From Escherichia phage CICC 80001: a stretch of DNA of 38,810 bases. Below the pieces are notes generated by a model. The model searched no databases, was not told the DNA's origin, and saw only the letters and a program-made list of their open reading frames with translations. Positions 5,182 to 7,198 of this stretch are shown here, piece after piece; the stretch's first letter is position 1, and every line of letters starts with the position of its first letter. A program made the position numbers and the translations under genes. The stretch lies in the sequence record NC_027387.1, one strand, 5' to 3'.

Positions 5182-5422
5182 GGTCTTCCTGACCGACTGA
5201 GGGCTCACCGAGGGATTCAGCGGTATGATTACATCACACCACTTCATCCCTATAGAGTCAAGTCCTAAGGTATACCCATAAAGAGCCTCTAATGGTCTAT
5301 CCGTAAGGTCTATACCTAAAGATAGGCCATCCTATCAGTGGAACCTAAAGAGGGTCTTAGAGAGGGCCTGAGGAGTTCCTAGAGGGTCCTTTAAAATATA
5401 CCATAAAAATCTGAGTGACTAT

Positions 5423-5569
5423 CTCACAGTTTAAGAACCCAAAGTTCCCCCCATAGGGGTCCCTAAATCCCAGCCAATCACCTAAAGTCAACCGAAGGTT
5501 GACCTTGAGGGTTCCCTGGGGTTGGGGATGACCCTTTGGGTGTTACCTTGAGTGTCTCTCTGTGCCCCT
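5423..5569. repeat. Terminal repeat homologue (single copy in this permuted sequence); physical genome ends expected here
   Basis: Begins TCTCACAGT as the T7 left end does, ends ...GTGTCTCTCTGTGCCCCT; preceded by ...ATCTGAGTGACTATC as at the T7 right junction; boundaries approximate. Confidence 0.55.
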
Positions 5570-5750
5570 ACCTGTTAAAGCCTCCTAAAGTCACCTCCTA
5601 AGGTCATTCCTACCGTCTACAGCCTAAAGACTACACTTAAAGACCCATTCAGTCAATCCCTATCTTAAAGATATTCTAAAGACCATCCTAAAGCCTATTC
5701 CTAAAGATGCCTTGTTGTTACCTATAAAGAGATTATCTTTAATCATTGTC
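5570..5750. repeat. Array of short CTAAAG/TAAAG-containing repeats next to the terminal repeat
   Basis: Repeated CCTAAAG-like heptamers every 12-20 bp, as at the T7 left end. Confidence 0.6.
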
Positions 5751-5752
5751 TT

Positions 5753-5775
5753 TAATACAACTCACTATAGGGAGA
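5753..5775 (+). promoter_or_regulatory. T7-type promoter (phiOL-equivalent)
   Basis: TAATACAACTCACTATAGGGAGA. Confidence 0.85.
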
Positions 5776-5828
5776 GACTACTTAAAGAGGACCAAAGAGA
5801 GATTAATCAAAATAATTTAAAAAGAGTA

Positions 5829-5864
5829 TTGACTTAAAGAGTCCTACCGGTTACTATTCACCTC
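5829..5864 (+). promoter_or_regulatory. Host sigma70 early promoter A1
   Basis: TTGACT, 17-bp spacer, TACTAT; positional match to T7 A1. Confidence 0.75.
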
Positions 5865-5955
5865 GTCAACGGGACAACGGCCTAAAACCACTCCCTGAGA
5901 TACCGGGGTCAACCGGATAAGTAGACAGCCTGATAAGTCATACGAAAAACAGGCA

Positions 5956-5992
5956 TTGACAACACGAAGTAACATGCAGTAAGATACACAGC
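5956..5992 (+). promoter_or_regulatory. Host sigma70 early promoter A2
   Basis: TTGACA, 18-bp spacer, TAAGAT; matches T7 A2. Confidence 0.8.
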
Positions 5993-6062
5993 GTCAACAC
6001 GGTAGCACGGTGTCTTCTAGGTGACTTAAGCGCACCACGGCACATAAGGTGAAACAAAACGG

Positions 6063-6098
6063 TTGACAACATGCAGTAAACACGGTACGATGTACCAC
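6063..6098 (+). promoter_or_regulatory. Host sigma70 early promoter A3
   Basis: TTGACA, 17-bp spacer, TACGAT; matches T7 A3. Confidence 0.8.
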
Positions 6099-6209
6099 AA
6101 GCAGTAAGGGTGTAGGGATAGGAACCGAGAAACCTGCCCGTGACCCGCCAAGGATAAGGCACTAGCCATGAGTCGAATTCGGTCACTCATCGCATAAAAG
6201 AATAACAGG

Positions 6210-6245
6210 TTGACAGCCTCCTTTAAAAGCTGTAAGATGTACCAC
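6210..6245 (+). promoter_or_regulatory. Additional consensus-like sigma70 promoter (fourth in the tandem early array)
   Basis: TTGACA, 17-bp spacer, TAAGAT, then GTACCAC as downstream of A3. Confidence 0.6.
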
Positions 6246-6425
6246 GAAATGACGGAACAGTGAGTCACCACACTGAAAGGTGATGCGGTCTGACGAAACC
6301 TGACCAAAGACGCTCTTTAACAATCTGGTAAACGGCTCTTGAGTGTACACACGTAGCGGATAACCCAAGGGTATCGCAAGGTGCCCTTTATGATATCCAC
6401 TAACAACACTATGAGGTAACACACA

Positions 6426-6776
6426 ATGGCTATGTCTAACATGACTTACAACAACGTTTTTGATCACGCTTACGAAATGCTGAAAGAAAACACCCGTTAT
6501 GATGACATCCGTGACACTGATGACCTGCACGATGCAGTACACATGGCAGCCGATAGCGCCGTTCCGCACTATTACAGCGACGTTTTCAGCGTAATGGCAA
6601 GCGAGGGCATTGACCTTGAGTTTGAGGATTCTGGTCTGATGCCGGACACCAAGGACGTAATCCGTATCCTGCAAGCGCGTATCTATGAGCAATTAACGAT
6701 TGACCTCTGGGAAGACACTGAGGACTTACTGAACGAGTACCTTGAGGAAGTCGAAGAGTACGAGGAGGAAGAGTAA
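6426..6776 (+). CDS. 0.3: Ocr (gp0.3) DNA-mimic anti-restriction protein
   Basis: 116 aa [22 protein letters not shown]..., highly acidic, near-identical to T7 Ocr. Confidence 0.97.
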
Positions 6777-6928
6777 TGGCTAACAACGTACAATACGGTC
6801 TGACCGCTCAAACTGTACTGTTCTATAGTGACATGGTGCGCTGTGGCTTTGATTGGTCGCTCGCAATGGCACACCTTAAGGAACTGTACGAAAACAACAA
6901 GGCAATAGCCTTGAAGTCTGCTGAGTGA
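6776..6928 (+). CDS. 0.4: gp0.4 homologue
   Basis: 50 aa [32 protein letters not shown]..., matches T7 gp0.4; TAATG overlap with 0.3. Confidence 0.8.
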   Translation: MANNVQYGLTAQTVLFYSDMVRCGFDWSLAMAHLKELYENNKAIALKSAE

Positions 6929-6978
6929 TAGGCTCAAGGTCGCTCAATATGAGTGGCCTTTATGATTATCACTTTAAC
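6929..6978 (+). promoter_or_regulatory. RNase III-type hairpin (extra copy of the R0.5-like site)
   Basis: GGCTCAAGGTCGCTCAATATGAGTGGCCTTTATGATTATCACTTTAAC, paralogous to the site at 7246..7300. Confidence 0.5.
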
Positions 6979-6997
6979 ATGTAATAGGACTAACACC

Positions 6998-7198
6998 ATG
7001 AGTAAACTTCTGGCAACATCTAAAATCAAAGGTCAATGCACTGTAACACTGCGAGAGTATGATCACGGGGCAATGGGTAGCACCTACGTTGTGCGATACG
7101 GTAAACAAGTCACCCAATGGGTGAACGAGGTTTTGGCACAAGAAGAATACCAAGCCTGCGTGATACACCAAGCAACATGTGCAGGCTGGAATGACTGA
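6998..7198 (+). CDS. Hypothetical early protein (66 aa), no T7 counterpart at this position
   Basis: ATG at 6998 with AGGA 8 nt upstream; ORF MSKLLATSKIKGQCTVTLREYDHG...; between genes 0.4 and 0.5, flanked by two RNase III-like hairpins; listed ORF 6953..7198 trimmed to the Met outside the hairpin. Confidence 0.55.
   Translation: MSKLLATSKIKGQCTVTLREYDHGAMGSTYVVRYGKQVTQWVNEVLAQEEYQACVIHQATCAGWND

Follow-up and report, generated by a model that had tools for sequence, protein, structure and literature searches.

The 147-bp segment 6099-6245 of the Escherichia phage CICC 80001 sequence (NC_027387.1; 38,810 nt, hereafter the window) is probably an early-leader cassette built from two separable modules, a fourth sigma70 promoter in its 3' part and a three-hairpin leader RNA of ~90 nt in its 5' part. 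Promoter activity, start sites, the in vivo fold and every function discussed below are what we infer from sequence. There is about an even chance that segment 6108-6193 represents a family of structured leader RNAs not described before, carried by a minority of Studiervirinae and Drulisvirus phages and featuring three hairpins and the pairing loops AACCGAGAAA and AUUCGG; in its boldest form, this reading includes action in cis on the host polymerase or sequestering of a host RNA-binding factor early in infection. As judged from the genomes that carry it, the putative family is always located in the host-polymerase early leader, beside tandem sigma70 promoters or boxA.

The record is a circularly permuted T7-group genome with its physical left end, TCTCACAG, at 5422, and the closest public genomes, HZ2R8 and ESh6, are ~92% identical to it. 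A consensus scan together with alignment to T7 and T3 located three early promoters on the + strand, including an A1-type promoter (TTGACT, 17-bp spacer, TACTAT; 5829..5857), an A2-type promoter (TTGACA, 18-bp spacer, TAAGAT; 5956..5985) and an A3-type promoter (TTGACA, 17-bp spacer, TACGAT and the discriminator GTACCAC; 6063..6098). The scan also confirmed the fourth site that the preliminary description had listed beside them, a + strand element at 6210..6246 with the -35 hexamer TTGACA (6210-6215), a 17-bp spacer and the -10 hexamer TAAGAT (6233-6238). The GTACCAC said to follow it as at A3 is present as well, directly after the -10 of the third (6092-6098) and the fourth (6239-6245) promoters. 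The T7 record annotates the A3 start at nt 750, the A right after GATGTACCAC, and by analogy the A3 start would be A6099 here and that of the fourth promoter G6246 or close to it. An A-rich stretch (6194-6207) lies upstream of the fourth promoter, similar to the stretches upstream of A1-A3.

Upstream of the array, the phage-polymerase promoter phiOL (5753-5775) reads TAATACAACTCACTATAGGGAGA, one base off the T7 consensus; downstream, the first gene is the Ocr-type gene 0.3 (6426..6776, + strand, 116 aa). The common leader, outside the cassette, contains an rrn-type boxA, GCTCTTTAACAA (6312..6323, + strand), with a hairpin before it at 6264-6284. This boxA is identical in T7, T3 and BA14 and starts 98-107 nt downstream of the nearest sigma70 -35. 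In pO111 (748-900) and 04922B, a different and longer segment replaces the boxB-like hairpin right after the fourth promoter, whose -35 is 190 nt upstream of boxA in these phages versus 102 nt here; the segment is another swappable leader module. The distance from the physical left end to the -35 of the fourth promoter is 789 nt, and the putative start corresponds to about genome nt 825 when counted from 5422. T7 is reported to internalise ~850 bp without transcription, and the fourth start would fall just inside that length.

The preliminary description had treated the stretch after A3 as probably absent from T7, and alignment with T7 (NC_001604) and T3 (NC_003298) bore this out, as the 147 bp right after A3 (6099..6245, + strand) are present in neither. 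The cassette runs from the A3 start to the end of the fourth promoter's discriminator and is bounded by two + strand copies of the 10-bp direct repeat GATGTACCAC, the left at 6089..6098 and the right at 6236..6245. A 152-bp stretch was found in 43 of 50,697 phage records at 92.7-100% identity, and one further record, PDP351P2, retains the promoter part only, giving a total of 44. The carriers belong to at least four Studiervirinae genera (Teseptimavirus, Berlinvirus, Kayfunavirus and Przondovirus), and their hosts are E. coli, Shigella, Yersinia, Citrobacter, Klebsiella, Hafnia and Serratia. Copies of the cassette are 92-100% identical to that of the window where the flanks are only 42-73% identical, and it is the best-conserved stretch in each group of genera, the conservation taking in ~110 bp upstream of the fourth promoter plus the promoter spacer. 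Part of this high cross-genus identity could come from recent horizontal spread and not from constraint. The cassette is in principle dispensable, given the good growth of T7 and T3, which lack it.

The origin of the block was searched for in several directions. No copy was found in 5,426 E. coli genomes, in PLSDB plasmids or in 185,579 species-representative bacterial and archaeal genomes, and a host or plasmid origin was rejected on these grounds; a metagenome scan returned only further near-identical copies. Neither the rest of the window nor the T7 and T3 leaders contain a homologue of the block, and an nhmmer profile of 6099-6207 likewise retrieved nothing from these sequences. A simple tandem duplication of A3 was not borne out by the profile search, and since the fourth promoter and A3 have unrelated spacers, the extra unit is not a recent tandem duplication. 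The empty nhmmer search also led to rejection of an origin by duplication and divergence of the A1-A2 or A2-A3 interval.

Apart from the promoter, the preliminary description had seen in this stretch only a small palindrome around an EcoRI site. The palindrome exists (ATGAGTCGAATTCGGTCACTCAT, 6168-6190, with the EcoRI site at 6175), but its surroundings are not filler, since the ~110 bp form a conserved three-hairpin module. All three hairpins, H1, H2 and H3, appear in the minimum free energy (MFE) fold of the window sequence alone. H1 (6108..6146, + strand) has an outer helix (6108-6111/6143-6146), an inner helix (6115-6117/6137-6139 and 6119-6122/6133-6136) with a bulged A6118, and the 10-nt loop AACCGAGAAA at 6123-6132. 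H2 (6147..6160, + strand) is short, with GCC and GGC enclosing the purine-rich loop AAGGAUAA, and is the weakest of the three helices. H3 (6165..6193, + strand), which contains the EcoRI palindrome, has stems at 6165-6166/6192-6193, 6168-6173/6185-6190 and 6175-6176/6183-6184, and the loop AUUCGG at 6177-6182. Thermodynamic support is modest, with z = -1.7 to -2.2 for single sequences (-2.2 for H1 alone).

The pattern of substitutions among the Studiervirinae copies follows this fold. When the structured span was compared with the fixed single-sequence MFE structure, 10 of the 12 uncompensated variable columns were at unpaired positions, and two pairs were compensated, by G-C to U-A at 6108/6146 and by A-U through G.U to G-C at 6168/6190. 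The G.U pairs and intermediates are compatible with the + strand only; the module, lying downstream of A1-A3 on that strand, would be transcribed in this sense. In the genome at large, 6-bp palindromes are strongly depleted, with two EcoRI sites, one PstI site, one EcoRV site and none for BamHI, HindIII, SalI, KpnI and BglII, each expected ~9-10 times. The two EcoRI sites are at 6175 and 7757, and CHX131 lacks the former (GAATTT). Conservation of the site at 6175 despite this depletion is attributed to the overlap of GAATTC with the H3 loop.

A second lineage of the module was uncovered in Drulisvirus, a genus of the subfamily Slopekvirinae. A sensitive search with the non-promoter part of the cassette showed a clean gap below 92% identity, free of relatives at intermediate divergence, and beyond the gap partial matches to H1 in six Drulisvirus phages, namely Kp_Pokalde_001, Minorna, GZMU_VR401, Indie, JKT6 and pKP-M186-2.2. 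All six matches fall within the early leader and have a sigma70-type promoter upstream of them. What follows the module is a second promoter or, immediately after it in GZMU_VR401 and pKP-M186-2.2, an rrn-type boxA. When the Drulisvirus sequences were folded on their own, they too adopted the three-hairpin shape, with the loops kept and the stems largely different. For instance, the H1 outer helix is GGGU/ACCC in the window versus UCCC/GGGA in Pokalde, and the H3 stem is AUGAGU/ACUCAU versus UUGCAG/CUGCAA. Other phages of the genus carry unrelated segments between the same two promoters; across Drulisvirus, the two sigma70-type promoters are conserved and the intervening 100-250 nt cannot be aligned between phages. 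Swapping of the inter-promoter segment in this genus would echo the behaviour of the cassette in the T7 group.

A covariance model built from 15 Studiervirinae copies only (window 6103-6198, 24 pairs) recovered the six Drulisvirus cassettes over their full length at 41-53 bits, compared with 8 bits for the best other match. In the resulting alignment of 16 sequences, 97.2% of cells were paired and 16 of 29 pairs had changed on both sides, one loop-loop pair among them, the cross-family alignment having been fitted to the model and the counts of nested pairs thus being biased upward. The covariation score of this alignment was 0.382, against at most 0.085 for all slid registers, and it derives from few independent lineages, namely the Studiervirinae block, the Pokalde type and Minorna. 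In H1 alone, 5 of 11 pairs had changed on both sides. On these alignments, the module behaves as expected of a conserved structured RNA, its modelled pairs being kept through compensatory changes.

Wider searches added no further lineage. With the hairpin-1 model (R1), neither T7 and T3 nor four further Drulisvirus cassettes yielded a member. When a scan was constrained at the two loops alone, it produced 67 new IMG/VR loci, of which model R2 confirmed none, and an 18-base core pattern hit four contigs in unrelated, apparently coding context; the hits of both loose scans were taken as chance matches.

The loops of H1 and H3 are proposed to contact each other, CCGAG of the H1 loop (6125..6129, + strand) kissing UUCGG of the H3 loop (6178-6182). 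The five pairs of this contact, which are outside the covariance model, can form in all 16 sequences, and slid registers of the loops are paired at 1-58%. In Minorna the loops read CCGCG and UGCGG, an A-U to C-G exchange that is the only compensated event behind the contact, and in CHX131 AUUUGG converts a G-C pair to G.U. Composition-matched shuffled loops reached 5 bp of complementarity in 1.0% (window) and 2.7% (Minorna) of trials.

The strongest competing explanation holds that the segment is a promoter cassette recently spread by horizontal exchange, with its cross-genus identity reflecting recency and its predicted hairpins having no function. It accounts for the Studiervirinae copies, all at least 90% identical with no relatives of intermediate divergence, and fits the interchangeable inter-promoter segments of Drulisvirus as well as the signs of recombination around the block. 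In Yersinia phage WW1, the block is a mosaic whose 5' part carries Teseptimavirus-type variants (ATGAGT, CAGC...GCTG) and whose -10 (TAAGCT) and both flanks are Berlinvirus-type, which indicates recombination within the block. Array size varies too, through exchange at the promoter sequences. However, recency offers no explanation for the same three-hairpin architecture in another subfamily, where the stems are rewritten yet still paired and the loops conserved. Within Studiervirinae, uncompensated substitutions avoid paired positions. Recent spread of a functionless fold is considered unlikely.

The array itself can be traced in three sizes. Teseptimavirus PDP351P2 (OZ035763, 690-750) has two early promoters only, A1 and a hybrid in which A2 upstream sequence is fused at the -35 to the core of the fourth promoter; recombination joining the two -35 regions seems to have removed A2, A3 and the RNA module. 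The array has three promoters in T7 and T3, and four in the window phage and BA14. The hybrid implies that an array of two, three or four promoters changes size via recombination between the promoter sequences themselves. Promoter number would shift through exchange between near-identical promoter sequences, GGTTGACA and GATGTACCAC.

The promoter half of the cassette is best judged by position and conservation. TTGACA-17-TAAGAT at 6210-6238 matches the consensus at 10 of 12 positions, with a perfect -35 and a -10 identical to that of A2. Sites scoring at least 10/12 number nine on both strands of the whole 38.8-kb window versus 7.75 +/- 2.4 in shuffled sequences, and a lone 10/12 site is unremarkable in this genome. 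However, three of the nine cluster on the coding strand, in a 282-bp interval immediately before the first gene, and every homologous copy examined conserves the fourth site. The element reproduces the geometry of T7 A3 (-35, 17-bp spacer, -10, 7-nt discriminator GTACCAC), and its -35 is 102 nt upstream of boxA, where that of A3 is 99 nt upstream in T7 and 98 nt in T3. By position, therefore, the fourth promoter corresponds to A3, and 'A3 plus its leader' is an equally valid description of the extra unit. Among 20 distinct aligned copies from the 44 phage records, the -35 is invariant and the -10 is TAAGAT, TAAGCT or TAATAT; A2 and T6 of the hexamer are kept in all copies and only positions 4 and 5 vary, so that variation is confined to the two least critical positions.

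The same promoter is already present in a public annotation. In the curated GenBank record of BA14 (EU734171), 'host RNAP promoter' is annotated four times; the fourth of these features (834-870) is homologous to 6210-6246 and lies in a block ~96% identical to window 6099-6238, with flanks only 61-72% identical. Both phages share the -35, the 17-bp spacer, the 7-nt length of the discriminator and the placement after the third promoter, and differ in the -10 (TAAGCT in BA14, TAAGAT in the window) and in the discriminator sequence (GTACCGG versus GTACCAC). BA14 gene 0.3 matches the SAM-dependent gene 0.3 product of T3 in length (459 nt) and is not Ocr. A3 geometry, the invariant -35, the restricted -10 variation and the BA14 annotation together support 6210-6246 as a putative fourth host (sigma70) early promoter, as the preliminary description had proposed. 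Having been annotated in BA14, the promoter is without novelty and is the ordinary part of the case. The upstream RNA module is unannotated in that record. Full-text literature searches, including exact sequence strings, returned no paper describing a fourth early promoter or the leader element, and the papers on phages SH3, Sxt1 and Sextaphag discuss neither. The conserved leader RNA module appears to be undescribed and to be the part worth pursuing.

The spacer of the fourth promoter is unusually conserved, whereas that of the neighbouring A3-type promoter drifts freely. The spacer region 6212-6234 contains a dyad, ACAGC-N11-GCTGT, which reads ACAGT...ACTGT in Berlin-like copies and so shows a C-G to U-A double change. 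This dyad could form a fourth small hairpin in the read-through RNA, or be a coincidence. It is conceivable on this basis that TTGACA-17-TAAGAT is inactive as a promoter and was conserved within a structured leader (ACAGC-N11-GCUGU), or by hitch-hiking with the RNA module, which GZMU_VR401 and pKP-M186-2.2 carry without a following promoter; chance consensus-like sites also occur ~8 times per genome. Against this stand PDP351P2, which keeps the promoter core without the RNA module, the preservation of both hexamers with changes only at tolerant -10 positions, the distance to boxA, equal to that of T7 A3, and the promoter feature entered by the BA14 curators. An inactive element is accordingly regarded as improbable, and a functional fourth promoter remains the favoured reading.

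Alternatively, the conserved dyads may work as DNA, either bound by a dimeric protein of host or phage or extruded as cruciforms. Both H3 and the promoter spacer are DNA palindromes, symmetric operators likewise change on both half-sites, and the element is part of the first DNA entering the cell. The persistence of G.T combinations speaks against a role as DNA: they occur in seven copies at 6168/6190, as an invariant U.G in H1 and twice in the H3 of GZMU, and are tolerated in RNA (on the + strand only) but break DNA symmetry. Moreover, H1 with its 10-nt loop, bulge and internal loop is unlike an operator, loop-loop complementarity has no rationale in DNA, and no DNA-binding regulator of T7-group early promoters is known. 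The G.U pairs and strand asymmetry thus favour a predicted RNA over a DNA-level site, which is given a slim chance at best.

Several other identities were tried for the leader segment and rejected. A known RNA family or tRNA-like element was dismissed, as Rfam 15 gave no match at E <= 1 over 5400-7000 and a single spurious 10-bit match at E <= 10 over 6090-6260, and no tRNA or tmRNA was detected. No terminator-like site is present on the + strand of 6099-6250, H3 being followed by CGCAUAAAAGAAUAA. In the fold of the full leader, AGGCA-C-UAGCCAU (6157-6169) pairs with the start region of gene 0.3, AUGGCUAUGUCU (6426-6437); this pairing was discarded because shuffled controls performed equally (fraction 0.2-0.4) and it is absent with other first genes. 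As for a CsrA sponge, suggested by several GGA/AAGGA motifs in the block, the sites are too few and mostly in stems. Coding potential was also rejected, with no plausible ORF on the + strand and minus-strand ORFs opposing the universal gene orientation. A 9-residue peptide from the palindrome region (ATG/GTG 6168 to TAA 6197, M/V-SRIRSLIA), with TAAGG 8 nt upstream as Shine-Dalgarno sequence, can be dismissed as highly improbable and its ORF judged non-coding: the ORF and the TAAGG are present in all Studiervirinae copies, but substitutions are non-synonymous (R to W in CHX131, I to T in Kayfunavirus copies) while RNA pairing is kept, the Drulisvirus versions have no equivalent ORF and the start codon would be sequestered in the H3 stem.

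Compared with known systems, the promoter is of the same kind as A1-A3 of T7 and T3, which are strong tandem sigma70 promoters at the leading genome end, ~100-150 bp apart and reading into gene 0.3; it combines the discriminator of A3 with the -10 of A2, and T7 and T3 have three early promoters without the 147-bp unit. The put RNAs of phage HK022, which consist of two stem-loops, are made directly after the early promoters and bring about antitermination in cis without the help of factors. The window module resembles put in placement and form only, as a compact multi-hairpin RNA in the leader of host-polymerase transcripts after strong early promoters; it has three stem-loops and a predicted loop-loop contact in place of two stem-loops, and the resemblance serves as a lead. 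With the boxA/boxB leaders of lambda nut and rrn the module has in common a leader containing the rrn-type boxA (6312-6323), which in GZMU_VR401 and pKP-M186-2.2 directly follows the three hairpins. It is, however, unlike the small boxB-type hairpin, and T7 and T3 possess the boxA without the module. Kissing-loop riboswitch aptamers such as the purine riboswitch share a ~90-nt fold, conserved loops predicted to pair and a position in a 5' leader, but the window module differs in having no Rfam match, closing P1 helix, expression platform, following terminator or suggested ligand.

Recruitment of host polymerase on the first-entering DNA, driving the class I genes, is established T7 biology. 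The fourth promoter most likely works like A1-A3, with E. coli RNA polymerase holoenzyme binding it within the first ~825 bp to enter the cell; polymerase starting there would transcribe Ocr and the other class I genes and help to pull in the remaining DNA. Segment 6108-6193 would be transcribed from the upstream promoters A1-A3 only, in the untranslated leader, and would fold into the three hairpins. As RNase III cuts at R0.3 downstream, mature mRNAs would lack the module, which implies that any function is co-transcriptional or performed in trans by the released leader fragment. Our best guess is that the leader RNA works in cis, either on the host polymerase that is transcribing it or by binding a host factor, and its recurrence next to promoters and boxA suggests a possible part in the control of transcription elongation or termination. 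In the boldest reading, the cis action would be put-like, countering pausing or termination and so accelerating transcription-driven genome entry.

In T7-like phages, early promoter strength sets the speed of genome entry and the timing of anti-restriction proteins. The 'A1-A2-A3' picture would then be one state of a variable array of two to four promoters reshuffled by recombination between promoter sequences, and this variability is relevant mainly for annotating and engineering such phages. The promoter alone changes little, and the three-hairpin module is the more useful lead, being a compact and easily mutated RNA in tractable T7 relatives growing on E. coli, with T7 and T3 as a natural control lacking it. 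If the module does modify host RNA polymerase or trap a host factor, it would represent a new phage tool in the first minute of infection and a new RNA family for the databases.
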